Assembly: GCA_019057475.1 (NCBI GenBank)
Contig: DXJO01000010.1
Span: forward strand, 192,001 to 256,000
Source of the DNA: Candidatus Thorarchaeota archaeon
GTDB taxonomy: Archaea > Asgardarchaeota > Thorarchaeia > Thorarchaeales > Thorarchaeaceae
Direction of reading: 5' to 3'
Length of the DNA: 64,000 nucleotides
Positions 5,294-42,640 of the stretch are shown here, one piece after another (the first letter of the stretch is position 1; each line of letters starts with the position of its first letter). The notes beneath the pieces were generated by a model. That model was not told the origin of the DNA. It searched no databases and was given only the letters and a program-made list of their open reading frames with translations. The translations under genes were made by a program, and so were the position numbers.

Positions 5294-6082
5294 TCAAGTG
5301 GAATCGGCAAGGGTTCTGGCAAAGGTCATGTACCCCGTGTGTGCGATCATCCATGTGGTTGGACGTGTCTTGTTCTCGCGCACCATGATCTCTCGCTCGA
5401 GTACTTCCAGAGTTCTAATCATGCCCCATTGTCTGCTTTCGCCCATAGCCTTGCAGGTCTTCATGACCTGTTCGATTGTGGGACTATAGCTCACAAGATA
5501 ATGGCTTGGCTTTAGTGCATTGTGAGCCGTATCAACAACCAACCAGGGGGTTGCTAGATCCAAGACCACCGCGTCAACCGCCTTCTCTTCGATGCCTTCG
5601 ATGATGTCCTTCAAATGCATAGTCACGTTGTCCAACGCATTGTGCCGCTTCAAGTTCTTCTCGGCTTGGATGTAATGATTCTCTCGGGCTTCGTATGTGT
5701 AGATATGGCCTTGCGGACCCACAGCTTTGGACAATATGTATGTGAGCGCACCAGATCCAGTTCCTGCCTCAACAACTCTGCATCCTGCAGATATCCCCGC
5801 TTCAATCAAGATTGTGCCTGCATCCTTTGGATAGATAATCTGAGTGTTTCGGCCCATCGAAATCTGAATGTCCGTTTGACTGGGCTTGTGGATTTGAAAG
5901 GTTTGACCCGAATGGCTCTCCACCTTGATACCGTAGGGACGACCGATGATATCATCGTATTTGATGATGCCCTTGTTGGAATGAAATTCCTCTCCTGCCT
6001 TGACCTTCCTTATCCAGTACCTCTTGGCATCCAAAAAGATGTAGATGTAACTGCCATCTTGAATCGGGTCCTGCATGAGCAA
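5294..6082 (-). CDS. trmI: tRNA (adenine-57/58-N1)-methyltransferase
   Basis: TQIIYPKD, VEAGTGSGALT (SAM binding), DAVVLDLATPW, YSPTIEQV and HTGY motifs. Confidence 0.93.
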   Translation of the reverse strand: MLMQDPIQDGSYIYIFLDAKRYWIRKVKAGEEFHSNKGIIKYDDIIGRPYGIKVESHSGQTFQIHKPSQTDIQISMGRNTQIIYPKDAGTILIEAGISAGCRVVEAGTGSGALTYILSKAVGPQGHIYTYEARENHYIQAEKNLKRHNALDNVTMHLKDIIEGIEEKAVDAVVLDLATPWLVVDTAHNALKPSHYLVSYSPTIEQVMKTCKAMGESRQWGMIRTLEVLEREIMVRENKTRPTTWMIAHTGYMTFARTLADST

Positions 6083-6191
6083 TCAAATCACCTGCAGTCG
6101 TTTTGAGTGTTCCTGCTCTTGTCAGGTCGACTCGCGCCAGCCCACAAAGCTTTATCCGAAAACTCTTTGCTGGCCCAAGAGAGGGAGACCC

Positions 6192-8384
6192 TTGGACGAT
6201 AGTAGTAAGAAGCACGCCCCGGAGCGGACTCTGGATTCCGACACCTTGGAATCTGATCGTCCGATAGAACTTATTCCAAAGAATGTCCTTGAGTATCGAC
6301 CCCGAGTCAAAGATCCACCTGACCTGTTTGTGGATCTAAGTGTTGGCGTGGTTCTGGGCCGGTCCAACTCCTTTCACCGGAAATATCGAAATGCGGGTCT
6401 GGGAACGATTGGTGCAATCGCGGAAACCTCGGATGACATTCTTACCTCGCTGCTAGGAATGCCAGTAAATCTGGACATGGTGAGTCCGCATGTCATATTC
6501 GTTTCAGGGAAGAGGGGGTCAGGCAAGAGCTACACACTTGGAATCCTGGTTGAAGAGCTTGCCTCTGCGATGGAGCGCAAGGAAATCGAGGTCGCAACCG
6601 TTGTGATTGATACTGTCGACGTCTTCCGGCAAGCGGTTGAGCCAAATGTGGATCAAGATGCTCTCCTGAAAAAGTGGAACTTACAGTCCAGAGGATTTCC
6701 AGTGGCTGTTTTCATCCCGCTGAAAACGTACAACAGTCTTCCAGAGGAGGTCCGGATAAAAGCCCGTCTTCATCCATTGGCAATAAGCCCACGCGAGATT
6801 ACTGTGAGTGATTGGGGATATGTGCTTGAGAAGGGGGGTCAGCTCAGCACGGCAATGGAGAACCTCATCGGAGACCTCCTTGAGAGCATTCGTCGAGGGT
6901 ACGCTCTGGCGTCCGGTGAACACGTTGCATTGAAACGCAGCTTCAGCATCAGGGATATGGTGCAGTGCATAGAGTCGAATCCTTCCATCACTGAGCTCTA
7001 CAAGGCTTCAACAAGAATCGCAATGATTCAAAGGCTCAAGAGGGCCGCAAGACTAGGAGTCTTCCATCCTAGTGGAACAAGCGCTCAAGATCTTGCAGTA
7101 GCAGGCCAAACCACGATAATTGATGTAGCACCGCTTGGGTCTGATGCAGAGGTTGTCCTCGCGATTTTAACCAACATGCTCTGCAGACAGGTTTTGACAT
7201 ATAGAATGGCATGGACAGAAGAGGGGACAAGCGCACGAGAGGAGCTTCCTCCGACATGGTTAATCATCGATGAAGCTCATACACTGGTCCCAAAGGGCAG
7301 CGCGACTCCCGCGAAGGATGCTATTGTAGGCTATGCAAAGCTTGGGCGACGTTTCGGATGCAGCTTGGTCCTGTGTACACAACAACCCTCAGCAGTGGCT
7401 GACGAGGCGATATCTCAGGCTGACATCATTATCTCGCATTCACTTTCTCATGATAGTGATATTCGCGCGCTTCAGCAACGAGCTCCAGCAGTAATGCCCA
7501 ACATGTTCCGCGACAAGGTTTTCATCAGTAGTCTGCCGCGCGGCGTGGCACTGGTCTTTGACCAGAGCACAGAGAATAAGCGCGGATTCATCACTCAGAT
7601 TCGCCCTCGATTATCTCAGCACGGAGGCACAGACCGACTGTCCAGTCTCTTTGAAGCAGCCCGGCTGATGATTCCTGAGGGGATTCAAGAAGAGTCAGAT
7701 CTCCAGTGGGACTTAGAAGAAATCGCCGCCGAACCCGCAGGCGAATTGACTGAAGGGCTTTCAGAGGTTCCTCGTCCTCCACTTAAGCTAAGCAAGGAAG
7801 ACTGGAATATGCTTGATGATTGGATTCAGGAGTATATTCGGGTCCTCTTCGAGAGGGAGCGGCAGGAGTTCTCAATCACGGATGAACCCGCCCCAAGAGC
7901 CGCTGAGCCTACGATTGAACAGGAGCCTGAAGCAATACCTCACGTCATTGAACCTTCTATGGCCAGCGTGGACACTCAGGTAATCGATAGTTCAAAGGTG
8001 CGCGTTCGGCAATTCGGCCCTCTCTCGCCATCAGTGCTCTTGAAAGCAATTACAAGAAAGATACTCTACTCCAAGCAGCCACACAGGTATCTCTTCACTA
8101 AGGGTCCCTTCTATAGAGACACAATTCCGGTGCAAATTCAAGACATAACGCCGTCCGACTTGGTAGAATGGTTGGCCTCAGGCCTTGTATCAGCTGGCCT
8201 AACAATTGAGAAACTGAAGGATGATGACGAGATTACTTTCGTCATGTTCAGCAAAAATGGTGTGCGAGGTGTCTTCGCAACCGGAGTGAGTGGTTCAATA
8301 GTATGTTCGCCAGTTGTAATCGTAGGAACCAACCGTGCCGCAGTTCTTCAGATGGTTGACAAGATTCGAAGGGCGATGAGCTAG
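6192..8384 (+). CDS. HerA/FtsK-superfamily ATPase (DUF87-type) with acidic linker and extra C-terminal domain
   Basis: Walker A GKRGSGKS, Walker B WLIIDEAH, GRRFG and CTQQPS. ORF track gives 6075; the TTG at 6192 follows GAGGGA and avoids overlap with trmI. Confidence 0.85.
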   Translation: MDDSSKKHAPERTLDSDTLESDRPIELIPKNVLEYRPRVKDPPDLFVDLSVGVVLGRSNSFHRKYRNAGLGTIGAIAETSDDILTSLLGMPVNLDMVSPHVIFVSGKRGSGKSYTLGILVEELASAMERKEIEVATVVIDTVDVFRQAVEPNVDQDALLKKWNLQSRGFPVAVFIPLKTYNSLPEEVRIKARLHPLAISPREITVSDWGYVLEKGGQLSTAMENLIGDLLESIRRGYALASGEHVALKRSFSIRDMVQCIESNPSITELYKASTRIAMIQRLKRAARLGVFHPSGTSAQDLAVAGQTTIIDVAPLGSDAEVVLAILTNMLCRQVLTYRMAWTEEGTSAREELPPTWLIIDEAHTLVPKGSATPAKDAIVGYAKLGRRFGCSLVLCTQQPSAVADEAISQADIIISHSLSHDSDIRALQQRAPAVMPNMFRDKVFISSLPRGVALVFDQSTENKRGFITQIRPRLSQHGGTDRLSSLFEAARLMIPEGIQEESDLQWDLEEIAAEPAGELTEGLSEVPRPPLKLSKEDWNMLDDWIQEYIRVLFERERQEFSITDEPAPRAAEPTIEQEPEAIPHVIEPSMASVDTQVIDSSKVRVRQFGPLSPSVLLKAITRKILYSKQPHRYLFTKGPFYRDTIPVQIQDITPSDLVEWLASGLVSAGLTIEKLKDDDEITFVMFSKNGVRGVFATGVSGSIVCSPVVIVGTNRAAVLQMVDKIRRAMS

Positions 8385-8484
8385 GCGAAAAGCTCTCACA
8401 ATTGCTCTGTCGGCGATTGCACGGTTGGAACCCTTACTATTAGCTTATAAGGTACAGTCGCAGTTTGCCGGCTTGGTGCAGAGC

Positions 8485-8841
8485 ATGACCAAATCCGACC
8501 TTCGCCCCCCTGTGAATCTTAAGTTAGCATCAATGGCAGATCTAGCCCGAATGCTGGTGTCTTGGTCCCAGAGAGACCGAGCGGCAAGCATGCTATACTT
8601 CGAGGACAAAGGAAAACACATCTACGGCACGCTCATTTCGAACCGCGGTTACTATGAGATGCAAGGAATCCCGCTGTGGGTCTACACCGAAGGTGAGTCC
8701 GCTCCTGCTGGGAATTTCTTGGCATACAGTACCCGCCCAAAGGAATCTGTTGAGTTTGTCGAATCTATTGAGTCCGAACCAAGGGTGGCTTACCTTCCGA
8801 TAATCACGCTGGCTGAGAAACTGGAGATACTGGACATATAG
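8485..8841 (+). CDS. Conserved archaeal hypothetical protein
   Basis: ORF 8425-8841, likely start ATG 8485. The pattern DLAR...YYEMQGIPL..Y resembles small uncharacterised TACK/Asgard proteins (recollection only). Confidence 0.6.
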   Translation: MTKSDLRPPVNLKLASMADLARMLVSWSQRDRAASMLYFEDKGKHIYGTLISNRGYYEMQGIPLWVYTEGESAPAGNFLAYSTRPKESVEFVESIESEPRVAYLPIITLAEKLEILDI

Positions 8842-8865
8842 GCACGCTCCTCTTGATCTCTGAGC

Positions 8866-9306
8866 CTAGTCACGGTCCATCGTGGACCAGAATGTCGTGC
8901 GATTCTTCAACCATTGTCTGAAATCCTGAACTATCATCTCATGATCGAAGGCGAGCCGCTCCTCACGCAGGTCATTCACGTCATACCACTTGGTATCAGC
9001 CGCATCGTCCCCTCCCTGCAGTTGACCACCAACCATTTTCCCAACGAAGACTACTGACACAGTGTGGCCGCGAGGGTCTCTCTCTGGGTCACTGTAGACC
9101 CCCAATATCTCACTGAGGTCAATCGCCATTCCTGTTTCTTCTTGAATCTCTCTCCTGGCGGCCGCCTCCACCGTTTCGCCATACTCCACGAATCCGCCAG
9201 GCAATGCCCACTTACCTTGATGCGGAGGTTGTCCCCTTTTCACGAGCAGTATCTTGTTACCATCAACCACTACAACATCAACGGACAGTGCTGGGTTTCG
9301 ATGCAT
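8866..9306 (-). CDS. NUDIX hydrolase (ADP-ribose pyrophosphatase-like)
   Basis: Nudix box GGFVEYGETVEAAARREIQEETG plus SDPERDPRGH and AFDH. Confidence 0.92.
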   Translation of the reverse strand: MHRNPALSVDVVVVDGNKILLVKRGQPPHQGKWALPGGFVEYGETVEAAARREIQEETGMAIDLSEILGVYSDPERDPRGHTVSVVFVGKMVGGQLQGGDDAADTKWYDVNDLREERLAFDHEMIVQDFRQWLKNRTTFWSTMDRD

Positions 9307-9307
9307 C

Positions 9308-10396
9308 TCAATACAGCTCCCTCGGTGATGCCCGCAGGAAATTGACTATGATGACTACAGCGAAGATTAGAAAGGCAAGCCAAATAATCAGGGTCTTGAC
9401 AGGCACCTCATACTCTTGAAGGAATGAGATTCCTTTGAAGAGCCCCTCCACAACGAGAAACATGCCTACGATGATGATGTTTGAGGTACCTCCCATCGTA
9501 CTTGTGTCTTCTACCTTGAGTCCTTTTCTTACTAGAATCATGATGACGACGATAATCAGGGAGATATTGTTGATGTAGCTGGTGAAAAGCCAGCTCATAT
9601 CGAAGAAGGGGATTGTGCCGAACGGGGTGGGAACTGGCGGCAACCACAGCGCTACGAAGATGAAGAAAAGCAGGAGTTCACCAATTCGAATCCACTTTGT
9701 CGGGGGCTTGGTATAGGATTCCCCGTAGACACCCTTGTCATATTCGCCGGCCGCATAGTACATGAAGTAAACAGGCGCCCCAAAGCTCAAGGCATTCACC
9801 AAGCTTTGTGCAACTCCATAGACCACATTGAACCAGAATGTCCTCCAATTGAGCAGAATAGACTCCCACACTTGCATATACATTGGCATGAAATTAAGCA
9901 ACACAAAGGTGGGAACGATACAGAGGATAATAGCAACCACCACCGCGAGAGCAGCTGCTGGTTTCCCTCCGCCAAGTCTACCTACTCCAACACCATAGAA
10001 GACATGTCCAGCCACCGCAAGGCCCCCAAGTATTGCTAGTGGCGCAGTCACCATTGGGAGGATAAAGAACATCAGCACGAATGATGCGTTGGTGCCATAG
10101 AAGAGTCGCCATCGCAAAGGCACGGCAGTGGTGCTCTCCTGCATTAGTTGAATGGTGTTTGCAAGCCTATAACGCCTGTAGTACAAGAGTGCTAACCACG
10201 GGACCGAGAAGACCGCTGGCGCAACGGCGTAGTGGAAAATCCAGTTATGAAGTGGGTCTGAAAACGGAGTCATCTGCGGTAGCAGGAAGACCAGCAATAG
10301 GAAGTACACTGGAGTGATCACTGCTATTGCGACTACTGTGATGCGGGTCATCATCCAGTCTGATTTCACTTTACGTCGCCAGCAGCTCGTTATCAT
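9308..10396 (-). CDS. Polytopic membrane protein, unknown function
   Basis: About 9-10 hydrophobic segments. Ends 1 bp before the NUDIX start. True start is probably the MMTRI ATG near 10354. Confidence 0.7.
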   Translation of the reverse strand: MITSCWRRKVKSDWMMTRITVVAIAVITPVYFLLLVFLLPQMTPFSDPLHNWIFHYAVAPAVFSVPWLALLYYRRYRLANTIQLMQESTTAVPLRWRLFYGTNASFVLMFFILPMVTAPLAILGGLAVAGHVFYGVGVGRLGGGKPAAALAVVVAIILCIVPTFVLLNFMPMYMQVWESILLNWRTFWFNVVYGVAQSLVNALSFGAPVYFMYYAAGEYDKGVYGESYTKPPTKWIRIGELLLFFIFVALWLPPVPTPFGTIPFFDMSWLFTSYINNISLIIVVIMILVRKGLKVEDTSTMGGTSNIIIVGMFLVVEGLFKGISFLQEYEVPVKTLIIWLAFLIFAVVIIVNFLRASPRELY

Positions 10397-11460: not shown

Positions 11461-12732
11461 ATGGCCGATAACAAGAACAGGTATCAATTCGCAACATGGA
11501 CTTCCTTCATTGCGGAGTCCCAGATTAGAGCACTGCTGAAATACACTGTCAAATACTACTTTGCTGGTGGGAAACCGGGAATCATTCCAACTGATATTTT
11601 TGCAAAGATACTAGCTGACCTGAGTGAGCAGTATATCAAAGACCCCAAGATGGCCCTAGACGATCTCAACTACGGACCAACTGGTGGACAGCCTTGGTTC
11701 TTGAAGACCTTGGCGAAACGACTCCACGATGTTAGAGGAATCCATATAGACTGTGAATCAGAGTGGGAGTGCGTATCCATAACAAGCGGGTCACAACAGG
11801 CGCTCTACGCCATTCTTGATACCATGGTCGATCCTGGTGATGTCATAATCACACCTTCGCCAGCATATCTGGGTTTTCTGGTGCCCGCGGTAAAGCTTGG
11901 TGCGCGGGTCATTACAGTGCCCACGGATCTTGAAGGAATAATTCCGGAGTACGTTACAAAGGCAATCCAGTTGTCTGAAATCAAGTTTGGCAAGACTCCT
12001 GACATTCTCTATGTGGTCCCCGACTCGGATAATCCAAAGGGAACAACTCTACCTCAGAAGAGGCGTCAGGAACTCTTTGATACCTGCGAGAGTCACAACA
12101 TTCTGTTGCTTGAGGATTCAGCTTACGCTGAGATTCAGTTTAAGAAAACGCCCAAACCCATTAAGGTTCTCGACAAGGATAACTCGCGTATTGCGTATCT
12201 AGGCACTACAAGCAAGGAGGCCGCAGTGCTAAGAGTAGGATATTCTGTCCTGCCACCAAACGTTAGAGAAGAGGTGTTGAAGGACAAGGGCTATCTAGAC
12301 CTCTGCACATCTACTATGATTCAGCGCATATTGAACGAGTACTACATAAAGTACATCGATGAAGCTATGCGTGTGGGCATACCAAAATACAAGAAACGGT
12401 ACGAGGCGATGGCTACGGCCATTGACGAATCATTCCCCGCAGGGCAACGAACTGACCCAACGGGAGGATTCTTCATCTGGTGGCAGAGTGAGAACAAAGC
12501 GTTTGACAGTGGAGAGTTCCTGCAGAAGACGGCAATCCCCAACGACCTGCTCTACGTTCCTGGGAAGCCATTCTATCCAATCACTGGCTACGCGATTAAT
12601 GACAGTGGCAATGACCTTATTCCTAGTATGCCAGAGCTCAATACAATGCGTCTAGGCTTCTCATATGTGACGCCTGAGATTATTTCGGAGGGCGTATCCA
12701 AACTGGGCAAGCTTCTAACAAAAGAGCTCTAG
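11461..12732 (+). CDS. PLP-dependent class I/II aminotransferase (LysN/Aro8-like)
   Basis: YGPTGG, ITSGSQQAL, NPKGTT, EDSAY, GTTSK (PLP Lys) followed by LRVGY, and GGFFIW. Confidence 0.88.
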   Translation: MADNKNRYQFATWTSFIAESQIRALLKYTVKYYFAGGKPGIIPTDIFAKILADLSEQYIKDPKMALDDLNYGPTGGQPWFLKTLAKRLHDVRGIHIDCESEWECVSITSGSQQALYAILDTMVDPGDVIITPSPAYLGFLVPAVKLGARVITVPTDLEGIIPEYVTKAIQLSEIKFGKTPDILYVVPDSDNPKGTTLPQKRRQELFDTCESHNILLLEDSAYAEIQFKKTPKPIKVLDKDNSRIAYLGTTSKEAAVLRVGYSVLPPNVREEVLKDKGYLDLCTSTMIQRILNEYYIKYIDEAMRVGIPKYKKRYEAMATAIDESFPAGQRTDPTGGFFIWWQSENKAFDSGEFLQKTAIPNDLLYVPGKPFYPITGYAINDSGNDLIPSMPELNTMRLGFSYVTPEIISEGVSKLGKLLTKEL

Positions 12733-12740
12733 CTTGTCGC

Positions 12741-14456
12741 TTACACTGAGAAGTTGAAGAAGAGAGTTGCGCCGTTCTTCATGTTCGGCACATATGCGCG
12801 ACGATAGGGTCCGAATAAATCATGAACACCTGAGTTGAGCATCCATTCAATCCAAGACCAGGACGCCTCTTGGCCAAGCTTGTTTTCAGCATATTGTCCA
12901 AACACCCAGCTCAAATAGCGCTCAACCTCAAGAATGGTAGCAAGGAGATCTTTCAGTTCATCGCCCTTTGCAGTCTTGCGCTGCCCTCTCAGGTCTTCCA
13001 GTGATACATTCAGCTCCTGATGACTCTCCAGTATCACACTCAGAAGAGACCGGATACTCTCGTTCATTTCATCATGTTTAGCCTTCTTTCTGAAGCGACC
13101 GATTGTCCCCAGCAAACGGAACATTTCTGGTTTGTGAAGCGGTGATAGGCCTTTTTCCTTCAATACTCCCGCAAGACTCTCGCTCCAAGGAGTATTGAAG
13201 TAGGCTCGCGGATACTTCAGAAATGCGGGGAAGGGCGCAGGCAGTGCTTTCGCAATTGGAATGACTTGTGCGTAATAGGCGGTTTCACCGCTTCCTCCCA
13301 CATGAGCGACGATGGGCAAGATCGTGTCGACAATCAATTGTCTGGAGTCAACTCTGGGTGATAGGTAACGTCCCACTTCACTAAGAAACGGTTCATCAGC
13401 CGATGTTTCAATCTCGACATTTTGACCGCACGATGGACATCTGCCTGTCAACACAGCCTCTGTGCCCTTCTCCTTGTACAATAGCTCGGTCCTACTCCTA
13501 TTGCATTCTTTCTCAGGGCACTCGTAGTAGAATGGCACATAGTTGAGCTTTCTAGATCCGGCGCCTGGTCTGAATCCGCTCTTCACAATGAGGTCTGTTG
13601 CTCTCTCGTGAGTCTTAAGGAAAACATCTCTTTGCTTCTTGGCCAATATGAATTCCATTCCCTCAACCATTAGATCTCGGAACACCTCATCTGATGCCGG
13701 GATAATCGGGATACCCAAGTTCCCCTCGATATTCAGAAGTCGACCAATTATTTTCTGAGCCCAATCGCCAAGGGTTCTGGAGTTGACAAATCCCCAACGT
13801 GTAATTGCCAGCGCCTGTTCGAGCCTTTCTTCAAAGAGTGTTCGCACAGGTTTGTCGAGGGGCTTGAGAAGGGGTCTATAGCTATGTCGAAGCTTCTCTT
13901 CAATCGCGTTGTACCATTCAATCTCAGGCAGAGGGAGAACGCTGACAGGCGAGTGCTTATAGCCTCTTGGTACAGGAATGCTCAGAAGATTGCCTTCGGG
14001 TCCCATGTTTGGAGTTCTGATATTGATCAGTTCTGATTGAACGATATCATAGTCTGCAACGAAGAAGACCGGAACGACATCGAGTCCTTGCTGAACACCA
14101 AAACTGCTGATTCGTTCTGCTGTGATTGCCTTGTTGAGAATGTATGCGGGGCCTCCCATTACTACACTCTGGTGAGCCGCTTCGACAACTCCATTACCGA
14201 GTCGTTTGATGTTCTCTTCCACACTGGGGGTCAAACATGCAAGCCCACGATTGGCCTTAATCAATGTCTTTCGGAGCAGTTTCATTCTCTCGTCGGTATG
14301 CCAGAGTCTATCCTTGTATTCCGCAAGTATCTTCGGAAACTCTGACACGATCTCTCCCATCGTGACGATTGGAGAACCATAAAGATCAGCTGCAAGACGC
14401 GACTGTGTGCCGCTCCAGATGAACTCCTGATAGATACTCGTCACACCGGGTTTCAA
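12741..14456 (-). CDS. bshC: Bacillithiol biosynthesis cysteine-adding enzyme BshC-like protein
   Basis: HQSVVMGGPAYILNKAIT, PVFFVAD, and SPRVDSRQ..DTILP..AHVGGSGETAYYAQ parallel BshC motifs (GGPLY..K; PVFW; SPNV..RP...LP...VGGPGE.AY.AQ). C-terminal coiled coil. Co-oriented 17 bp downstream of bshA. Confidence 0.85.
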   Translation of the reverse strand: MKPGVTSIYQEFIWSGTQSRLAADLYGSPIVTMGEIVSEFPKILAEYKDRLWHTDERMKLLRKTLIKANRGLACLTPSVEENIKRLGNGVVEAAHQSVVMGGPAYILNKAITAERISSFGVQQGLDVVPVFFVADYDIVQSELINIRTPNMGPEGNLLSIPVPRGYKHSPVSVLPLPEIEWYNAIEEKLRHSYRPLLKPLDKPVRTLFEERLEQALAITRWGFVNSRTLGDWAQKIIGRLLNIEGNLGIPIIPASDEVFRDLMVEGMEFILAKKQRDVFLKTHERATDLIVKSGFRPGAGSRKLNYVPFYYECPEKECNRSRTELLYKEKGTEAVLTGRCPSCGQNVEIETSADEPFLSEVGRYLSPRVDSRQLIVDTILPIVAHVGGSGETAYYAQVIPIAKALPAPFPAFLKYPRAYFNTPWSESLAGVLKEKGLSPLHKPEMFRLLGTIGRFRKKAKHDEMNESIRSLLSVILESHQELNVSLEDLRGQRKTAKGDELKDLLATILEVERYLSWVFGQYAENKLGQEASWSWIEWMLNSGVHDLFGPYRRAYVPNMKNGATLFFNFSV

Positions 14457-14473
14457 GATACTCTCCTACCTTC

Positions 14474-15646
14474 CTATTTACTAATGACTTCCTCAAAGAT
14501 TTTTTCGTACTTGGGAACGATTGCCTTGGCTGCAAAGTGTTCCTCCACACGTTTTCTGCCGGCAGCAGACATCTGCTCCCTCATTTTCTCTTTGTCCAAG
14601 AGCTCGATGACTGCATCCGCGAACTCCTCGATTTCGAAGCCTTTGGTTACAATCCCATCCTTGCCGGGTCGAACCAGCTCTGGAATACCTCCTGCGGGAG
14701 TAGTGACCACTGGCAGACCGCACGACATAGACTCCAAGAGAACAAGTGGCATGCCTTCTAGCATCGAGTTGAGCAGGAATGCATCCGCAGAGCACATAAT
14801 CTCCAGCATGTTGCTCTTTATCCCCAGAAGATGAACATTATTGCAGAGGTCAAGTGCATCTATTCGTCTCTCAACCTCTATTCTTGTTGGACCATCGCCG
14901 GCAATCAGAAGACGGGTGTTCGGATGATGGTCGACAACTATCCGCATGATGTCAACCAGCTCGACGACTCGTTTCACCTTGCGGAAGTTTGACGCATGAA
15001 GCAGGACTATCTCTCCGGGATTAATCTCTTGGGCTTCTTCTGTACTCCTTACAGAAACGCAACCACTCTCAACTACCAGTTTGAAGTCGCTCTTTGGCGC
15101 GAATTTTTTCACGTCGATGAAGTTCGGTATCACATGTACTTCCCGTGTGATTCCCAATTCCCCGACTATCTTCTTCTTGAGGAACTCGGATACTGTTGTC
15201 ACGGCATCAGCGTTTTGAACGACATGTTCGACCACTGGCCTATAGGCAGGGTCCTGACCGAGTGAGTGCACATCTGAACCATGTAGAGTGACCACGTAGG
15301 GGATGCCACATATTTCCCGGGCCATGTAAGCTGACATTGCGTGTGGTATTGCGTAGTGTGAGTGAATAAGATCAAGCTTAGAATCCTTGGCCACCTTGAC
15401 TATCTTTGATGTCAATGCCATTGTATATGGTGGTCCCACATCCTTGAACAACGGGTAGTCAAAGCGGTCGACAAGGTCCACGTGGACCCCTCGCGTTTGC
15501 TCCCACATCAACGAGAACGGGCGCTCGTAGGTGATGAAGTGCATCACATGCCCTCGATGTGTCAAATGTTGTCCAAGGCGGGTTGCCAGATATCCGGACC
15601 CTCCCATCGAGGGATATAGATTCACACCAATGTTCAAGCGTGTCAC
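14474..15646 (-). CDS. bshA: N-acetyl-alpha-D-glucosaminyl L-malate synthase (GT4)
   Basis: IGVNLYPSMGGSG..ATRLG, HSHYAIPHA, TLHGSD, HASNFRKVKR are diagnostic of BshA. GT4 motif EGMPLVLLE. Confidence 0.93.
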   Translation of the reverse strand: MTRLNIGVNLYPSMGGSGYLATRLGQHLTHRGHVMHFITYERPFSLMWEQTRGVHVDLVDRFDYPLFKDVGPPYTMALTSKIVKVAKDSKLDLIHSHYAIPHAMSAYMAREICGIPYVVTLHGSDVHSLGQDPAYRPVVEHVVQNADAVTTVSEFLKKKIVGELGITREVHVIPNFIDVKKFAPKSDFKLVVESGCVSVRSTEEAQEINPGEIVLLHASNFRKVKRVVELVDIMRIVVDHHPNTRLLIAGDGPTRIEVERRIDALDLCNNVHLLGIKSNMLEIMCSADAFLLNSMLEGMPLVLLESMSCGLPVVTTPAGGIPELVRPGKDGIVTKGFEIEEFADAVIELLDKEKMREQMSAAGRKRVEEHFAAKAIVPKYEKIFEEVISK

Positions 15647-15750
15647 CTTTTCAGTAGGGTTGTCTTATGCCTGTGGGCCTCGTGGTTTGAGCGGTTCAAG
15701 ACTGACCAGCGGGCCAAAGCTTGATTAGACACCAACCTGAACACGAGGAT

Positions 15751-16419
15751 ATGAGTGATGCGGATGAGGCCTCCATGCTCGTTGTAGTTGCTCATCCTGA
15801 TGATGAGTGTCTTGGAGCGGGCGGCACAATCAGAAGACATGCGGAGCTCGGGGTTCCTGTGAGTGTTCTATGTCTCACTGGGAATGATGAGCGTAATGCC
15901 GAACTGAATAAGGCCTGCAAAACGCTTGGTGTGGCAGAGGTGCACACCAGTATGCGCGGCGACTTTGATGTTGACTGGTCACTCTCACATGAAATCGCTC
16001 AGACAATCCTCCGGACCCGACCCAGAATCATAATCACTCATTCTGTTGAGGACTACAACCGTAATCATAATCTCTGTGCGCAAATCGTAATGGAGGCAGT
16101 GGAATGGGCTTCCCACGTCACAATGTTTGATGATGCCCATAGGGTTGAGCGCATATACAACATGGAGATCAACTCCCTTCTTTCGCGTCCAAGCATCATG
16201 GTCGATGTTTCTGACTGCTACGATACTGCTGTACAAGCTCTTAAGCAGCACGAATCCCAGATGTCTAAGGCAAGCGGCTTTTACCCCAATTTATACGACG
16301 CCCGCACTCGCCTTCGTGGAGTGCAAGCTGCCTGTAACCGAGCTGAGGCCTTTGGTCTATCACCTTTAAGACATGCAGGCCCATTTTATCCTGTCAACAG
16401 CGTCCGAAGTTTGATCTAG
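15751..16419 (+). CDS. bshB: PIG-L/LmbE family deacetylase (BshB-like)
   Basis: VVAHPDDE Zn motif, HESQ, RG....AEAF. Divergent from bshA. ORF track start 15721; ATG 15751 is likelier. Confidence 0.8.
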   Translation: MSDADEASMLVVVAHPDDECLGAGGTIRRHAELGVPVSVLCLTGNDERNAELNKACKTLGVAEVHTSMRGDFDVDWSLSHEIAQTILRTRPRIIITHSVEDYNRNHNLCAQIVMEAVEWASHVTMFDDAHRVERIYNMEINSLLSRPSIMVDVSDCYDTAVQALKQHESQMSKASGFYPNLYDARTRLRGVQAACNRAEAFGLSPLRHAGPFYPVNSVRSLI

Positions 16420-16437: not shown

Positions 16438-16830
16438 CTACTGACCGGTAGCATCAGTTTTTCTTCTTCTAGCTGCAAGAAGGCTCTTCAACTCGCCCAT
16501 GAGCCCGCCTCCACCTCCAGTTGGTGGGGGTCGTGCTGAGGGCGCCTTGGCTATCGGGGCACTAGCCATATCGGGGGCAGCAGAAGCAGCAGCTGAGGCT
16601 GCTGACGGGGGCGCAACTCCGCGACTAGCTATTTGGTTGACCTTCGAATCGAGTCCGTCGAGTTTTGTTTCAAGGTCATATAGGCGCGTATCCAGGCCTC
16701 CTATCGCATCCACTAGCTTCTTTGTAATGGTGCTGACGACATCCCCTAGGGCTCGAAGCTTCTCTTCAGTGGGATCTTTGAGAGCCCATTCGAATTCTTC
16801 AAGGATGAAATCCTCGTCGTCACCAGACAT
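16438..16830 (-). CDS. Small coiled-coil protein with Ena/VASP FAB-like (WH2-related) C-terminal motif; candidate actin regulator
   Basis: Acidic DDEDFILEEFEW, heptad repeat LDTRLYDLETKLDGLDSKVNQI, Ala/Pro linker, then PPPTGGGGGLMGELKSLLAARRRKT. Confidence 0.7.
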   Translation of the reverse strand: MSGDDEDFILEEFEWALKDPTEEKLRALGDVVSTITKKLVDAIGGLDTRLYDLETKLDGLDSKVNQIASRGVAPPSAASAAASAAPDMASAPIAKAPSARPPPTGGGGGLMGELKSLLAARRRKTDATGQ

Positions 16831-16908: not shown

Positions 16909-18294
16909 TCATAAAGACTCCACAATTCTCTCAACAGTGCCTTTTGCATCCAACATGATTGACTCAGCAATCTCTTGGGTCGGAGCCTCGCAGGTCACCC
17001 TAATGACTGGCTCTGTCCCTGAAGGCCTGACAAGCACCCAGCCCTCTTCGAGGAAAACACCAAGACCGTCAACGGTGAGAATATCCACAGTCTTCTTCAT
17101 GGCCTCAGGCAGCGCCTTGGCCAGCTCTTTCATGGCGGCTTCCTTCTTGTTGTTCGGACACTCCACTTTGGCTTTAAGGAGCGGATAGACTGGAATCTCT
17201 GACATCAAGTCCCCGAAGCTGCGTTTCGTTTTTGCCATCAGTTCGAGTACTTTGCATGATGTAAGAAATGGATCGGGCGCTTCGTGAAACTCCGGATGAA
17301 TGAATACACCACAGGCTTCACCGCCAAAGATGGCATTGGTTTCTTGCATTTTGATAGCCACCTGAATATCCCCTACTGGCGTCCTAACCGTTTCTCCACC
17401 AGCCGCTTTGACGGTTTCATCCAAGACTCTGGAACTGTCCACTGTGGTAACGATAATCTTGTTCTTGGAGTTCTTGAGAATGTGGCGTGCAATGAGTGCA
17501 ATAACTCTATCACCCCTCACAACCTCCCCGGACTCGGTCACAAAGACAACGCGATCAGCGTCCCCATCGTGGGCTATGCCAAAGTCCGCGCCGGTCTTCC
17601 TAATCAAGCTCACGAGGTCTCCAAGAGACTCCTCATCGGGCTCAGATCTTCTTCCTGGGAAATGGCCATCTGTCTGCCCGTTGATTGTCACCATCTTGCA
17701 TCCAAGCTCTCTCATCAGATATGGTGTAAGGACACAGCCTGCGCCGTTTCCCGGGTCAACGATAATCTTGAATTCCCTTGATTTTATGAGGTCTGCATCA
17801 CAGACAGCGAGAATCTCATTGATATGACGGTCAACAGCGGTTTCCAACTTCCTGTCGGTTCCCAGCTGGTTCCATTCAGCAATCTGAAATTCCTTGGAGT
17901 TGTAGATCTCCTCAAGGCGCGCCTCCTCTGCCTGCGTGTAGCCCATGCTTGACCTCGACCAGAACTTCAAGCCAGTGTACTCGGGTGGATTGTGAGACGC
18001 TGTTACCATGACGCCGGTGTCATAGCCGTGGTACTTTGTCATGAATGCCAGAGTTGGAGTGGGGATGAGACCTGCTCTGACAACATTCACTCCTGTTGAC
18101 ATTATTCCTGCCGCAAGGGAGTCCTCCACCATGGGGCTTGTGGTTCGTGCATCGTGAGCGAGAAGAACCGTTCCGCTGCCCAAGTATGTTCCGAGAGCTT
18201 TGCCTAGTTCAATGGCCATGTCCAGCTTGAACTCAGTACCGTAGATCTTTCTCACACCAGTTGTTCCGAAGAGATTTCCTGTCATCCTTCTCAC
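16909..18294 (-). CDS. glmM: Phosphoglucosamine mutase / phosphomannomutase
   Basis: LFGTTGVR, TASHNP (phospho-Ser), DGDADR (metal), GGE and VRPSGTEP. Confidence 0.9.
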   Translation of the reverse strand: MRRMTGNLFGTTGVRKIYGTEFKLDMAIELGKALGTYLGSGTVLLAHDARTTSPMVEDSLAAGIMSTGVNVVRAGLIPTPTLAFMTKYHGYDTGVMVTASHNPPEYTGLKFWSRSSMGYTQAEEARLEEIYNSKEFQIAEWNQLGTDRKLETAVDRHINEILAVCDADLIKSREFKIIVDPGNGAGCVLTPYLMRELGCKMVTINGQTDGHFPGRRSEPDEESLGDLVSLIRKTGADFGIAHDGDADRVVFVTESGEVVRGDRVIALIARHILKNSKNKIIVTTVDSSRVLDETVKAAGGETVRTPVGDIQVAIKMQETNAIFGGEACGVFIHPEFHEAPDPFLTSCKVLELMAKTKRSFGDLMSEIPVYPLLKAKVECPNNKKEAAMKELAKALPEAMKKTVDILTVDGLGVFLEEGWVLVRPSGTEPVIRVTCEAPTQEIAESIMLDAKGTVERIVESL

Positions 18295-19632: not shown

Positions 19633-20190
19633 ATGAGCAGCAGTACGTATGATTATCTGTTCAAGGTTGTTGTTCTGGGAGAAGGCGCCGTAGGAAAAAC
19701 AGCGATCGTAACGCGCTTCTCTCACGGTTTCTTCCGCACTGACTACAAGACGACAATCGGGTCTCAATTCGCCGTCAAGAACATCACCGTGACTAGGACT
19801 GATGGCTCAAAGGTTACGGTGAAGCTGCAAATTTGGGACGTGGCAGGTCAATCACGGTTCCAGATTCTGAGACCAATGTACTATCGCGGTTCAAGCGGCG
19901 GGATTCTTGTCTACGATGTGACTCGAAGAAGGACGTTCATGGTCCTTCAGGAATGGATGGATGAGCTTACAAAGGCTATCAACAAGGAGATTCCTTTAAT
20001 CCTCGTTGCCAATAAGACGGACCTGCCAGACCGCGTGGTGCAGCCCGCTGAGGGGCGCAAGTTCGCTGATGAGCACAATATGCCCTACCTTGAATCGTCA
20101 GCTAAGACGGGCGAGGGCATTGTTGATATATTCGCAAGGCTGGGCAAAACATTGGCACGGACTCGCGAAGAGCACTCAAGTCTGCAGTGA
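19633..20190 (+). CDS. Rab-like small GTPase (eukaryotic signature protein)
   Basis: YDYLFKVVVLGEGAVGKT (G1), TTIG (G2), KLQIWDVAGQ (G3), YYRG, LVYDVT, NKTD (G4) and SAK (G5). Confidence 0.93.
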   Translation: MSSSTYDYLFKVVVLGEGAVGKTAIVTRFSHGFFRTDYKTTIGSQFAVKNITVTRTDGSKVTVKLQIWDVAGQSRFQILRPMYYRGSSGGILVYDVTRRRTFMVLQEWMDELTKAINKEIPLILVANKTDLPDRVVQPAEGRKFADEHNMPYLESSAKTGEGIVDIFARLGKTLARTREEHSSLQ

Positions 20191-37653: not shown

Positions 37654-38748
37654 TCACTTCGGTCCCAGCGCCATCCTAATGGCTGTGTTGAAGTCTTCAG
37701 GAGTTATGAGTGGGGACTCGATCTTGAGGTCCTTGTAGGCTTTTTCGATTCTTGGAAGGATTTCTTCCTCGGTTGTCTTCACCCCAATAAGAGCCTTCTC
37801 GAGTCCAGAGATCGCGTCGCTTGGCAACATGAAGAAGTCGCCACTGATGACAATCTCATGGATTCGATCTTCAACTTCCTCCACAGTGATCCTGATGAGA
37901 CCTCCTTCTGCCTTGTAGCTAGCAGTTCCAATCTGTGTGGTGGCCGAGATTCGCACTGTTCTGGCATCGAGTCTGCCACGTCGTCTCCAGTGCAACCATT
38001 CGTCAGAGAGGTACCTACCCCTCATCCGAGCCATGCGACTCTTCTCCCAATCTGATAGATGTCCCAGCTTGAGCTCTATGTCAAGGGTTTCCTCGTACAG
38101 TCGCACAAGGTCCTTTTTGACTTCGTCGCGGTCTGGAATTCCCCCTGTTTCGAGCAGGATTGTGCTCATCCTCTCTCTCAAGCTCTTTGCAATCTTGTCC
38201 CTGAATTTTTCGTCTGGCACTCTCAGCACCTTCACCATCATATCGAAGTTGAAGTCGAAGATTAGATTTCCAGTCAGGATTCTTGCGTCACCGACATCAC
38301 CCGCTCCGTTTCCAGAAACCTTCTTGCCTCCAGCTTGAATGTCGTTGACAGGTTTAAATTCAGCATCGATTCCAAGATTCCTATAGGCTTGGACCGGCGC
38401 CTGCAGGAATTTCCGGTAGTATGCGTCTATGCCCTTGGGTGTTGTTGGACTGTCGATTCTACCTATGAGTTGATAGAACATCTGACCATCGTCAAGGTAG
38501 ACCCCGCCTCCCCCAATCACTCTTCGAGTAACAAAGATATCATTCTTCCGACAGAACTCGAGGTCAATGTCTTTGTCAATCTCTTGGAAGTAACCCAAGC
38601 TAACGAGTGGTTTTGCCGGCCAACAGATAACGAGAGTATTCTCAGATTCGCCCTCAGTTATTCCTTGGGCAATCATGTCGTAAATTGTCTGCGTTTCCAG
38701 CGGGTCAATGGGCCCGAGGTCCAACAGTCGCCAAGTTTCGAGTGTCAT
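37654..38748 (-). CDS. lplA: Lipoate-protein ligase A with C-terminal domain
   Basis: SLGYFQ, RRVIGGGGVYLD, NDI..GGKKVSGNG and ISGDFF. Start taken at MTLET 38748 (ORF track 38778). Confidence 0.9.
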   Translation of the reverse strand: MTLETWRLLDLGPIDPLETQTIYDMIAQGITEGESENTLVICWPAKPLVSLGYFQEIDKDIDLEFCRKNDIFVTRRVIGGGGVYLDDGQMFYQLIGRIDSPTTPKGIDAYYRKFLQAPVQAYRNLGIDAEFKPVNDIQAGGKKVSGNGAGDVGDARILTGNLIFDFNFDMMVKVLRVPDEKFRDKIAKSLRERMSTILLETGGIPDRDEVKKDLVRLYEETLDIELKLGHLSDWEKSRMARMRGRYLSDEWLHWRRRGRLDARTVRISATTQIGTASYKAEGGLIRITVEEVEDRIHEIVISGDFFMLPSDAISGLEKALIGVKTTEEEILPRIEKAYKDLKIESPLITPEDFNTAIRMALGPK

Positions 38749-38890
38749 CGTGATTACTGGTGGAAATCCGCAGAACATAAAATCCTATTTATTCAACCGT
38801 GGCTGCGAATTGAAGAATTGGGCATCAAGCTTCTGTCCCTTTCACTGCCAACAGTTGGACTAACTCTTGATATTTAAATTAACTAGAATT

Positions 38891-40246
38891 CTAAGCTGCA
38901 TATTTCATTCCTTTTATCTTGAAGTATGGAATCAATGCACTATTATCCTGATCTCGAATGGCTTTGCGTTCTTTACTCAAGGCTACAATGTTCTTCAATC
39001 CCTCAAAGAGGTTTCCAGTGATGGATATCTCTTTGAGAGTGCAGACAATCTCACCATTCTTAATCAGCTGACCCCCCTTCACGGGTCCAGTAAAAATGCC
39101 TGAAACAGGATCGGGAAATGCGCTGACACGTGGAATAAGAAGCCCATGATCAACATCAGAGATGATATCATCTAACGACCGCTCTCCAGGTGCAATGTCG
39201 ATATTGGTTGTTGAGATTGTAGGTGATTTTCTAAAATCGCCACTGGCATGTCCAGTTGATGAGAGGCCTTCCCTATTTGCGGCAAATGTATCATAGAGAA
39301 TACCCTTGAAAACACCCTTCTCAATTATGGGATGTCTTTGATGAGGGACACCCTCACGGTCAAAAGAACTACTTCCTGTCAACCCTTCAAGGGTACCATC
39401 ATCCACGATTGTCAAATTAGGTACAGCAATTTCCTCTCCAAGTCTATCAGCTAGATAGCTTGACCCTGATTGAATCTGAGTAGCACTTGCTGCCGTTAAA
39501 ACGATGCTAAGTAACTCAGCCATTGCATCAGGGGTTATTATCGCAGGCCCTTCGAAGCTTTCTGTTTTCTCAGCACCAAGATTTCTAAGAACCTTCTCTG
39601 CATACTTTTTAGCGGTGCCATCGATGTCTACATCTTTGATCCTCACAACTGAATCATACTCGTAATCAAATGAGCCAATGTCATCACCGTCAATTGCCAT
39701 ACCAAAAATGAACCAGTACAAACTAGAGCGTAGATCAAATGATTCGATGCCAGTAGAGGAAACAATTGCAGTTTCCCGTGTACTGACTTCAAAGGATCCC
39801 GCGTCAATAGAGATTCTTTCATCAAATGCTTTAGATGAATCGAGCAAATTCTGACTGTAACCCAATACATCATCCATTGTGAGCTTTTCAATTGCTGAAT
39901 CGTATAACCCAGCTACTTTCGAAACACTCTGGGGATCGGGGAGGGTGTAGTAATCCAAAGAGGGCGTTGTCTTTGCAATGGACACAGCTACTTCGATACC
40001 TTTCTGTATTCGCTCAGCATCAAGGGAATTAACACCTGCGAATCCAAGCGCTTTCTTAATCAGAACACGAATTCCTACACCTTCAAGAATTGATCCAGTA
40101 GCAGACTTGAGAGTGTTGGCCTCAAAATTGACTGACTTGTTACGTATTCTTTGTCCGAACAGCTCAACCTCATCAGCTCCAAGTTTTAATGCCTTCTCTA
40201 CGAATGGCTCAAGCGATTTCAGTACCTCATTCGCCATTTCATGCAC
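38891..40246 (-). CDS. pmbA: PmbA/TldE metalloprotease partner
   Basis: GVGIRV, IVDDG...SFDREG, STGHA and EISITGN. Lacks HExxxH. Overlaps the tldD stop. Confidence 0.9.
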   Translation of the reverse strand: MHEMANEVLKSLEPFVEKALKLGADEVELFGQRIRNKSVNFEANTLKSATGSILEGVGIRVLIKKALGFAGVNSLDAERIQKGIEVAVSIAKTTPSLDYYTLPDPQSVSKVAGLYDSAIEKLTMDDVLGYSQNLLDSSKAFDERISIDAGSFEVSTRETAIVSSTGIESFDLRSSLYWFIFGMAIDGDDIGSFDYEYDSVVRIKDVDIDGTAKKYAEKVLRNLGAEKTESFEGPAIITPDAMAELLSIVLTAASATQIQSGSSYLADRLGEEIAVPNLTIVDDGTLEGLTGSSSFDREGVPHQRHPIIEKGVFKGILYDTFAANREGLSSTGHASGDFRKSPTISTTNIDIAPGERSLDDIISDVDHGLLIPRVSAFPDPVSGIFTGPVKGGQLIKNGEIVCTLKEISITGNLFEGLKNIVALSKERKAIRDQDNSALIPYFKIKGMKYAA

Positions 40247-41627
40247 CTCCTACATCACCTGAAACCAATGCTATAGCACGTGTGGTTCCACCACCACCAT
40301 CAACCTTAGCAAGTTGACCCTTGCCACAATGTCCGGCACCCATATCTAATCGCCATTCTTTGCTGATTGCATCTACAGACCTGAGAACATCAAAGGCATT
40401 TCCTGTGAGTGAGAGACTTCGAACAGGTTGTCCAATCTCACCATTCACAATTTCAAGTGCCTCGGTCATTTCAAACATAAACTCTGCACTACTATCAGCT
40501 TGACCTCCACCAGCTCGTCTGCACAAGTAACCAAACTTGATCCCTTCAAGTAATTCCTCTTCTGAGAAATCTCCAGGCTCTAGGTATGTGTTTCTCATCC
40601 GAATAAGTGGTTCAACATCATACTCAAAGGCACGCTCATTACCAGTGGGGGCGACACCAAAATGATGGGCTGAATGCCTACTATGGAGATAGGACTTTAA
40701 AACCCCCTTCTCGATAATCACTGTCTTTTCTGCTTTCACACCAGCATCATCTACAGCTAGCCAACCTGCTGCATAATCCTGTTCACCTGAGTCAACCATA
40801 GTAACCTGTTCATTTGCGACGTGCGTTCCAATCTTTCCTTTGGCAGCACTTCCTGACATAACAAAGTCGCTCTCTACAGTATGACCAATTGCCTCATGGC
40901 AGATGATTCCAACTACTTCGGGCTCCATCACAACGGTGTGTTTTCCACCCTTTGGAAATGGTGCATCTAGTAGCTTTACAGCATAGTCCGCAACAAATTC
41001 AGCCATTTCTAAGGGATTCTTCTGTTCAAAGATCTCCCATCCACCAGTTATCCCATAGGTCGACCAGCTTGGTACAATCTTGCCTGCTTCCGCAGCAACA
41101 GCACGGAGGATTATACTTGGTCTGCTATCGAACAATTCTACGCTAGTACCATCTGAGTTCATTATGATGCGATGGTTTCTTGGTTCGCGCACCCAAGAGT
41201 CAGACCCACTTATTTTGTCATCATAATTGGTGATAATCGAGTCAAGCTCTTTTACCAGACCAACTATCTCTTCCATATCATGATTTTCAAAGGGATCTTT
41301 TCCAACCGACTTGAATGTCCCTTTGACTGGCTTTATCGGGGCAATCTCGATTTTATTTTTCATACTCCTTGCTAGATTTCTTGCAGCAGTGACCGCGTTT
41401 TCTAGGGTTTCATCCACAGCAGTCCTATCTAGTTTGCTTGTACTAGCATAGCCCCATGCACCATCTGCAAGAACACGAATTCCAATCCCTGCAAAATCAT
41501 CGACAACAGCCATTTCTAGCTGACCCTTTTTCATACGAACTTGAGTATACAGCCTCTGATGGTAACGTGCTTCTACATGAACACCTTCTGGACCATTGTC
41601 AATAGCTCTTTGTACTAAATCCTTCAA
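40239..41627 (-). CDS. tldD: TldD metalloprotease
   Basis: GIGIRVLADGAWGYAST, HEAIGH (HExxxH), DDAG, IRMRNTY and CGKGQ. Confidence 0.93.
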   Translation of the reverse strand: MKDLVQRAIDNGPEGVHVEARYHQRLYTQVRMKKGQLEMAVVDDFAGIGIRVLADGAWGYASTSKLDRTAVDETLENAVTAARNLARSMKNKIEIAPIKPVKGTFKSVGKDPFENHDMEEIVGLVKELDSIITNYDDKISGSDSWVREPRNHRIIMNSDGTSVELFDSRPSIILRAVAAEAGKIVPSWSTYGITGGWEIFEQKNPLEMAEFVADYAVKLLDAPFPKGGKHTVVMEPEVVGIICHEAIGHTVESDFVMSGSAAKGKIGTHVANEQVTMVDSGEQDYAAGWLAVDDAGVKAEKTVIIEKGVLKSYLHSRHSAHHFGVAPTGNERAFEYDVEPLIRMRNTYLEPGDFSEEELLEGIKFGYLCRRAGGGQADSSAEFMFEMTEALEIVNGEIGQPVRSLSLTGNAFDVLRSVDAISKEWRLDMGAGHCGKGQLAKVDGGGGTTRAIALVSGDVGGA

Positions 41628-41866
41628 AATTATCTTCCTCCGGCAGAAAAATCGATCCGTGCCTGAAAATTGTGACTGCTACTTAAAAGTAAATCCAAAA
41701 GTATCGTGGCCTCTTGGATTGCATGAGCATAGAGTAATTCTCCTTGGTATTGAACTATCTCCGCAACTCTCTGACCACGTTGGAGTTCTCCTTGGAAAAC
41801 ATCAATACTGTGGTCAACCACGCCTAGATACTAAGGCATAAATCGTCAGTATCGACGAAAGAGAGC

Positions 41867-42640
41867 TTGATTTCAATGATTGAGGCTATGGAGCTTACAA
41901 AGGTCTTCAACGAATTCATTGCCGTGAGGAATCTGTCCTTTCAGGTCAATCCTGGAGAGATCTACGGTCTTCTTGGGCCCAACGGATCTGGGAAGACTAC
42001 GACCATGCGAATGCTCCTTGGACTTTTGCAACCCACTGCTGGCAGTGCTAGAATATCCGGCCATGACATTCGAGAGGAGATAGTCGCTGCGAAGCGCGTG
42101 ATGGGTTATGTCCCCGAGGAGCCAGTACTTCCTGAACGGCTAACTGGTTGGGAGTACATCCACTACATCAGCGATATCTGGCGAGTGCCGAGAAGTCCAG
42201 AACGTGAGGATGACATTCAGGAGCTTATGAATCTTCTCGACATCAGTGATGCCAGCGATGATCTCATAGAAACCTACTCGAAGGGAATGTCACGTAAGAT
42301 TAGTCTGGTAGCAGCACTGATACACAAACCGACAGTGCTCATCCTTGATGAGCTGCAAGCGGGAATAGATCCTCGTGGAGCTGCCACAATGAAGGAGATT
42401 CTGAATGGCTTGCGAGAGCGGGGCGCGACAATCCTGATGTCAACCCATATCCTTGAGATTGCAGAGCGGATGTGCGACCGAATAGGAATCATCGACGAGG
42501 GGGAACTGATTGCAGAGGGGACCATGGAGGAGCTTAGGACGAAAGCCAAAGGTCAGAGTTCCTTGGAAGAGATATTTCTCTCTCTAACAGGAGGTCCCGA
42601 TATGCAGCTAATCGCACAGTACCTGGGTGAATCGGCTTGA
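41867..42640 (+). CDS. ABC transporter ATP-binding protein
   Basis: GPNGSGKTT, YSKGM signature, LILDE and STH. Confidence 0.95.
   Translation: MISMIEAMELTKVFNEFIAVRNLSFQVNPGEIYGLLGPNGSGKTTTMRMLLGLLQPTAGSARISGHDIREEIVAAKRVMGYVPEEPVLPERLTGWEYIHYISDIWRVPRSPEREDDIQELMNLLDISDASDDLIETYSKGMSRKISLVAALIHKPTVLILDELQAGIDPRGAATMKEILNGLRERGATILMSTHILEIAERMCDRIGIIDEGELIAEGTMEELRTKAKGQSSLEEIFLSLTGGPDMQLIAQYLGESA

Follow-up and report, generated by a model that had tools for sequence, protein, structure and literature searches.

The 64,000-nt stretch analysed here (the window throughout) comes from the genome of a Thorarchaeota archaeon (3.34 Mb, 96.4% complete) and carries three adjacent genes, for a BshA glycosyltransferase, a BshC-like ligase and a PIG-L deacetylase, which form a real and conserved archaeal cluster of the bacillithiol type, complete in type. 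Judging from the genes and the residues that they retain, we consider it probable that this cluster makes bacillithiol itself. In the proposed pathway BshA would move N-acetylglucosamine (GlcNAc) from UDP-GlcNAc onto L-malate, the PIG-L zinc deacetylase would strip the acetyl group, and the archaeal-type BshC-like enzyme would join cysteine to the freed amine, so that the product would be bacillithiol (Cys-GlcN-malate, where GlcN is glucosamine) or a very close relative; all of the substrates, the choice of amino acid and the function in redox buffering are our inference. The assignment of the cluster itself draws on family and fold assignments, conserved catalytic residues, the single-copy status of the genes and their conserved clustering in distant archaea. 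The genes and the spacers between them are as follows.

12741..14456, minus strand: archaeal-type bshC-like gene, 571 amino acids (aa) from a TTG start, predicted to ligate an amino acid (cysteine) to the deacetylated sugar
14457..14473, minus strand: bshA-bshC spacer, 17 bp, with the Shine-Dalgarno-like GGTAGGAG
14474..15646, minus strand: bshA, 390 aa from a GTG start, GT4 glycosyltransferase, predicted N-acetylglucosaminyl-L-malate synthase
15647..15750, no strand: divergent bshA/deacetylase intergenic region, 74-104 bp by the start chosen
15721..16419, plus strand: PIG-L/LmbE-family deacetylase, BshB-like, 232 aa from a TTG start, with alternative ATGs at 15751 and 15775

An earlier note on this DNA had described a complete locus of glycosyltransferase, deacetylase and BshC-family ligase, and all three open reading frames (ORFs) were found at these positions, intact and with purifying conservation. 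Its reading of the spacing also held: the bshC-like gene begins 17 bp past the bshA stop codon, read directly from the sequence, and its start is preceded by GGTAGGAG, a spacer which fits a single bshA-bshC transcript, and the two genes are probably co-transcribed as one unit. The divergent gap between bshA and the PIG-L gene, given previously as about 100 bp, measures 74 bp when the TTG is taken as the start and 104 bp when the ATG at 15751 is.

BshA passed the TIGR03999 equivalog model with 364.7 bits, 91 bits over the cut-off of 273.7, and none of the other GT4 matches in the genome (17 in all) reached it; just two in the control genomes lay above this cut-off. The protein has the two-domain GT4 architecture (PF13439 and PF00534), and its residues 3-388 matched PDB entries 2JJM, 3MBO, 5D00 and 6D9T at E values from 5e-69 to 1.5e-55, with the first three between 5e-69 and 1e-67. 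The acceptor side was judged from motif conservation. The motifs P[ST]xGGSG, HYAxPH, LHG[ST]D and SNFRxxK occur together in BshA only among the ORFs of at least 200 aa in this genome, and all four are near-invariant across 80 archaeal orthologues.

The BshC-like protein is the product of the sole PF10079 gene of the genome (57.5 bits against 27), and its PDB sequence matches were to BshC only. An AlphaFold2 model (64 sequences) had a predicted local distance difference test score (pLDDT) of 96.4 and a predicted template modeling score (pTM) of 0.94, and its best PDB fold match by Foldseek was Bacillus subtilis BshC (4WBD; E 4.4e-19, TM 0.66/0.70), a match that runs over the full length in 595 alignment columns at 14% identity. 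Across 64 archaeal-type and bacterial-type sequences Q96, K109, D137 and G388 never vary, and the window protein has them; G102, E142, R322, G390, E391 and Y394 reach at least 90% conservation in the same set, and the GxGE-xx-Y motif is kept. Membership of the BshC family, as first proposed, thus stands by fold and by PF10079, with the protein falling outside the curated bacterial equivalog TIGR03998. A further signature is a metal knuckle formed by C313, C318, C340 and C343 within a four-stranded insert. We found it in 32 aligned archaeal-type sequences, with C318 replaced by Asp in one subclade and with four exceptions, one lacking the last Cys and three in which the second position holds no clear ligand; the knuckle region of B. 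subtilis BshC is free of cysteines.

The deacetylase (PF02585, 73.9 bits against 28.2) is likewise encoded by the only PIG-L gene of the genome, and its best PDB match was Bacillus cereus BshB (2IXD, E 2.8e-13). The HxDD+H zinc site is intact, together with the catalytic Asp: H25, D27, D28 and H116 align with His12, Asp14, Asp15 and His113 of BC1534 and are invariant among 71-73 archaeal homologues, and R58 is the equivalent of BshB Arg53.

Comparison across archaeal genomes showed that the locus is long established. The Thorarchaeota gene order (orf276, glmM, orf130, PIG-L, bshA, bshC-like, aminotransferase, pyrF, orf362) recurs in 70 Thorarchaeota-type loci whose BshC identity goes as low as about 50%, including those of SMTZ1-45, of AB_25 and of a closed chromosome; two closed chromosomes are represented in all. 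All three pathway genes stand together in 57 of these 70 loci, with 12 of the other 13 cut at contig ends, and the bshA-bshC adjacency is retained in every Thorarchaeota locus long enough to reveal it. We observed one departure from synteny, in the Thorarchaeota bin8 chromosome (L109, CP070658.1), where the ligase match covers residues 108-571 only and lies within a 1240-aa frame that may represent a rearrangement or fusion; no BshA was found in that genome.

Beyond Thorarchaeota, the archaeal-type ligase was present in 167 of 301 Asgard genomes and BshA above its cut-off in 134 of them. By family, the numbers of genomes with the BshC-like protein and with BshA were 74 and 70 of 76 (f1), 27 and 27 of 28 (f5), 17 and 16 of 19 (f12), 11 and 11 of 11 (f14) and 3 and 3 of 3 (f26). 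All three genes are clustered again in families f12, f14 and f26, and BshA adjoins the BshC-like gene in f5 and f18. The same clustering of PIG-L, archaeal-type BshC and BshA extends to Bathyarchaeia (L120-L130, including the closed 1.5-Mb CP070640.1), with ligases of 35-38% and BshA proteins of 42-44% identity. A 6-kb contig that bears the label Patescibacteria (L127) falls among the Bathyarchaeia sequences and has probably been misbinned. Since bacterial bshC was first identified through its co-occurrence with bshA, the evidence for the archaeal gene, namely conserved co-occurrence and co-localisation with bshA, is of the same kind. Taken together, the synteny and the clustering in distant archaea argue for an old archaeal module that is neither contamination nor a recent transfer. 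The pathway is thus present and complete in type, near-universal in the Thorarchaeota genomes searched and held in common with Bathyarchaeia.

The genes that flank the cluster are listed here.

11461..12732, plus strand: class I/II aminotransferase (kynurenine/aminoadipate-aminotransferase-like, PF00155), convergent with the bshC-like gene
16438..16830, minus strand: conserved 130-aa ORF between the deacetylase gene and glmM, no assigned pathway role
16909..18294, minus strand: archaeal glmM (phosphoglucosamine mutase), TIGR03990 526.5 bits against a cut-off of 439, which supplies the UDP-GlcNAc precursor

The proximity of glmM, also remarked on earlier, was borne out: the gene sits one gene past PIG-L and is syntenic in Thorarchaeota. 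The intervening 130-aa ORF occupies the same position in Thorarchaeota loci at 41-93% identity and gave no match among Pfam or NCBIfam families. The aminotransferase matched PDB entries 1X0M and 3AOV at E values of about 1e-44, and it adjoins the bshC-like gene in Thorarchaeota, as does an aminotransferase of 52-53% identity in family f22, which is without BshA. We rejected a pathway role for it, as it is of a broad kynurenine aminotransferase II (KAT-II)/aminoadipate type, is convergent with the ligase gene and belongs to a ten-gene block that is syntenic in Thorarchaeota anyway.

Elsewhere in the window, the guanine-plus-cytosine (GC) content, which is 0.486-0.498 over the locus and about 0.49-0.51 across most of the window, drops to 0.444-0.450 at 38001-42000, spanning overlapping minus-strand ORFs at 38891-40246 and 40239-41627; this stretch may be a foreign island. 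A 2308-aa ORF at 50464-57390 (minus strand) has weak FG-GAP, Big_1 and Wzt_C matches and probably encodes a large surface protein. The ORF at 19633-20190 (plus strand) encodes a small GTPase of the Ras family (PF00071, E 1e-49), one of the eukaryote-like signature proteins typical of Asgard archaea.

The earlier proposal that this lineage makes bacillithiol or a variant of it remains the best reading of the cluster, with the qualifications that only BshA meets a family-specific cut-off and that no redox partners were found. Several observations weigh against bacillithiol as the product. No archaeon is known in which bacillithiol has been detected (PMC7278568). A search of the 96.4%-complete genome for the bacillithiol partner proteins gave nothing above cut-off, with no match to BrxA/B (TIGR04191) or BrxC/YtxJ (TIGR04019) and a best score for Bdr/YpdA (TIGR04018) of 71.4 bits against a cut-off of 339.9. 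Each of the three enzymes also departs in some respect from its bacterial counterpart. The ligase scores far below the TIGR03998 equivalog (57.2 against 265.8 bits), and the deacetylase falls below the cut-offs for both BshB1 (TIGR04001, 85.2 against 182.5 bits) and BshB2 (TIGR04000, 61.6 against 195.25). In addition, BshB Arg109, His110 and Asp112 are replaced in the deacetylase by Y112, N113 and N115. In Staphylococcus aureus BshA the Glu and Phe of an ESFG motif contact GlcNAc; residues 297-300 of the window BshA read EGMP, so that Glu is retained while Phe has become Met and Gly has become Pro.

These departures, together with the lack of partner matches, count in favour of a second explanation, in which the pathway logic is the same and the product differs: a cysteine-sugar-acid thiol with another sugar (e.g., a C4 epimer), another aglycone or a further modification, and hence an archaeal thiol of its own. 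The change in BshA is shared widely, as the sugar motif takes the form E-x-x-P in Thorarchaeota (EGMP in 60 of 80 sequences), in f12 (EGAP) and in Bathyarchaeia (ESAP), and in a related GT4 enzyme Pro or Gly at the equivalent motif position sets Gal or Glc specificity (PMC10361700). Tyr or Trp replaces Arg109 in all PIG-L proteins linked to archaeal-type clusters, with His110 and Asp112 also altered in the Thorarchaeota proteins. The E-x-x-P BshA and the Tyr-for-Arg109 deacetylase moreover track the knuckle-bearing ligase subclade of Thorarchaeota, f12 and Bathyarchaeia, and canonical BshC is without this knuckle.

The phylogeny of the ligase places it apart as well. In an exhaustive profile search about 40 full-length clusters scored at least 200 bits, after which scores fell to 84 bits or less; representatives below this gap scored 454-514 bits against TIGR03998 and the archaeal-type representatives above it 19.5-85. 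In a BshC-family tree, built with FastTree and so bearing local support values only and a long-branch warning, archaeal-type BshC lay on one side of a branch (local support 96), apart from all TIGR03998-positive sequences. The named members of this clade come from Thorarchaeota (with proteins 87-94% identical to that of the window), Hodarchaeales, Ranarchaeia, other Promethearchaeota and Bathyarchaeota, and NCBI names them 'bacillithiol biosynthesis BshC'.

Against a different product stand the score of BshA, well within the equivalog range, and its intact BshA-specific N-domain motifs, and the Arg109 substrate contact in Bacillus BshB is known from docking only. Families f5, f14 and f26, moreover, pair an archaeal-type BshC with a BshA that retains ESFG, so that the ligase clade alone does not imply a new sugar. 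On balance we consider a variant product rather unlikely. The same holds for its fuller form, which we offer tentatively, in which Asgard and Bathyarchaeia would share an old, vertically kept archaeal pathway that makes a thiol chemically distinct from bacillithiol by way of the metal-knuckle ligase, the Tyr-for-Arg deacetylase and the E-x-x-P transferase.

A third explanation does away with the free thiol and supposes an N-aminoacylated amino sugar that would go into a glycan, a lipid head group or a solute, with an added amino acid that may not be cysteine. Here too there are observations that tell against bacillithiol. The tree neighbour of archaeal-type BshC is an unannotated intermediate clade (the canonical clade being separate), and this nearest clade lies in polysaccharide, not thiol, gene clusters. 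Its members (P0195-P0197, P0204, P0207, P0262 and P0237; loci L141:5348-9841 and the JGI contig of P0237) are flanked by genes for PIG-L proteins, WbqC, a GT2 transferase, DegT aminotransferases, acetyltransferases and a Wzx-type flippase. This setting suggests that the intermediate clade aminoacylates an amino sugar in a glycan, and its position beside PIG-L genes suggests that the general chemistry of the family is the aminoacylation of deacetylated amino sugars, which keeps a non-thiol product in play. The bacterial BshC reaction itself has not been reconstituted in vitro, nor has the amino-acid specificity of any BshC-family enzyme ever been shown in vitro. A GT4 and PIG-L pair also starts the synthesis of GlcN-phosphatidylinositol.

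Two archaeal families point the same way, in that they hold the ligase without BshA. In f24 (genome G089, L033:5797-9358) a GT2 gene (8336-9358), a PIG-L gene (7593-8318) and an archaeal-type BshC-like gene (5797-7587) are co-directional, with Amidohydro_2 downstream, and BshA was found in 0 of the 7 genomes searched; because an inverting GT2 here replaces the retaining GT4, a different conjugate is implied. In f22 the BshC-like gene was present in 19 of 21 genomes and BshA in 0 of 21. Its loci (L031:7935-10915, L035, L039 and L040) show the BshC-like gene convergent with the aminotransferase, paired as in Thorarchaeota, and within 8 kb of the BshC-like gene they contained no PIG-L or glycosyltransferase gene.

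For the window, by comparison, the transferase is an equivalog-level BshA that scores only 70 bits against the cut-off of 480 for the N-acetylglucosaminyl-phosphatidylglycerol synthase model, and among the conserved neighbours (pyrF to glmM) Pfam/NCBIfam scans and synteny revealed neither a flippase nor a polymerase, nor any other glycan gene. We therefore regard a non-thiol product as improbable. Finally, it is scarcely credible that the cluster represents contamination from bacteria, arrived by a very recent transfer or is a relic without activity. In favour of such a reading, the pathway has elsewhere been characterised in bacteria only, and in a 2025 survey of RefSeq no archaeon had it (PMC12719100). 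Against it, the contig is more than 256 kb long and carries an archaeal GlmM and further archaeal or Asgard-typical genes (A/V-ATPase subunit I, HerA, aldehyde ferredoxin oxidoreductase and the Ras-family GTPase), GC is flat over the locus, the three conserved frames are intact, and both the gene order in named Thorarchaeota, closed chromosomes included, and the position of archaeal-type BshC apart from the bacterial-type sequences contradict a bacterial origin of the contig, which we rejected. The earlier views that the contig is archaeal and that no very recent transfer took place are accordingly upheld.

Possible users of such a thiol are also encoded. Three DinB_2 (PF12867) proteins lie above cut-off in the genome, and in the four control archaea there were none:

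C54:105343-105711, DinB_2 gene, PF12867 above cut-off
C29:210250-210603, DinB_2 gene, PF12867 above cut-off
C47:4424-4744, DinB_2 gene, PF12867 above cut-off

The DinB_2 family includes bacillithiol and mycothiol S-transferases, and the three genes (L134-L136) lend weak support to a role of their products as thiol users.

Metagenome-assembled genomes are scarce in RefSeq, a circumstance that probably bears on how this pathway has been reported. The literature is split. Rawat and Maupin-Furlow (2020) listed 39 archaeal hits for BshA and 39 for BshC in InterPro, the greater part from Asgard archaea, and proposed that archaea may make bacillithiol (PMC7278568), whereas a 2025 survey, by RefSeq BLAST with Chlorobaculum queries, denied an archaeal pathway (PMC12719100). 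The negative outcome of that survey is probably explained by the divergence of the archaeal ligase and deacetylase together with the poverty of RefSeq in such genomes; bacterial-seeded searches miss the pathway because these two enzymes are divergent archaeal branches. The core idea of an Asgard bacillithiol is already published and annotated, and for this reason the gain from the present analysis is moderate. Our literature search returned no paper naming bacillithiol together with Thorarchaeota or Bathyarchaeia, nor did it turn up a description of the archaeal-type clade of ligases and its metal knuckle, of the changed deacetylase pocket or of the spread to Bathyarchaeia. Sugar-based low-molecular-weight thiols have yet to be measured in an archaeon, and a distinct thiol, if true, would be the first redox thiol with a sugar base that is native to Archaea. 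Because eukaryotes have their closest prokaryotic relatives in the Asgard archaea, an Asgard redox buffer would be relevant to the handling of oxidants in that lineage.

Compared with known systems, the window cluster most closely recalls the bacillithiol pathway of Bacillus, Staphylococcus, Deinococcus-Thermus and Chlorobiota (BshA, BshB1-B2 and BshC), with the same three families and the same inferred order of reactions. Both have an equivalog-level BshA, a full-length BshC fold of the 4WBD type, the HxDD+H zinc motif and linkage of bshA with bshC. Unlike the bacterial BshC, the window ligase bears a Cys4 (or Cys3-Asp) knuckle and scores below TIGR03998; unlike Bacillus BshB, the deacetylase scores below TIGR04001 and TIGR04000 and is without Arg109, His110 and Asp112. 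The window system further differs in its EGMP for ESFG, in the failure to find Brx, BrxC or Bdr, and in its archaeal host. A contrasting case occurs within the same phylum, where the Asgard family f27 (L041:5768-9095, L042 and L043) has the same three functions in a canonical co-directional bshC-bshB-bshA operon. Its BshA scores 405-423 bits and carries ESFG, its deacetylase reads D-R-H-P-D-H, and its BshC groups with TIGR03998-positive sequences, whereas that of the window is of the archaeal type; the f27 operon is a second form of the pathway among Asgard archaea and has the look of a bacterial-type system that was acquired separately.

The mycothiol pathway (MshA, MshB and MshC) likewise leads to a Cys-GlcN conjugate, through a GT4 transferase, a deacetylase of the LmbE/PIG-L family and a Rossmann-fold ligase that has class I tRNA synthetases as relatives. 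Mycothiol models nevertheless scored far lower on the window proteins (MshA 70 against 462.5 bits, MshB 31 against 224), MshC (3C8Z) was a marginal fold match to the BshC-like model (E 0.04), and the cluster has no inositol-phosphate logic; with Msh scores so far under cut-off, we rejected a mycothiol pathway. The second-best fold match of the BshC-like model was class I lysyl-tRNA synthetase (LysRS-I; 1IRX, E 7e-8, TM 0.37-0.42). No anticodon-binding domain was identified in the BshC-like protein, and a profile comparison of archaeal-type BshC with the genome's own LysRS-I was weak (probability 16%). Two CxxC pairs of that LysRS-I fall in the aligned region (residues 156-270 of 555), and we claim no homology between them and the cysteine element of the ligase. 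As the archaeal ligase is nearer in form to class I tRNA synthetases, it might reveal the activation chemistry of BshC, and it offers a fresh, well-folding target for study of the BshC reaction.

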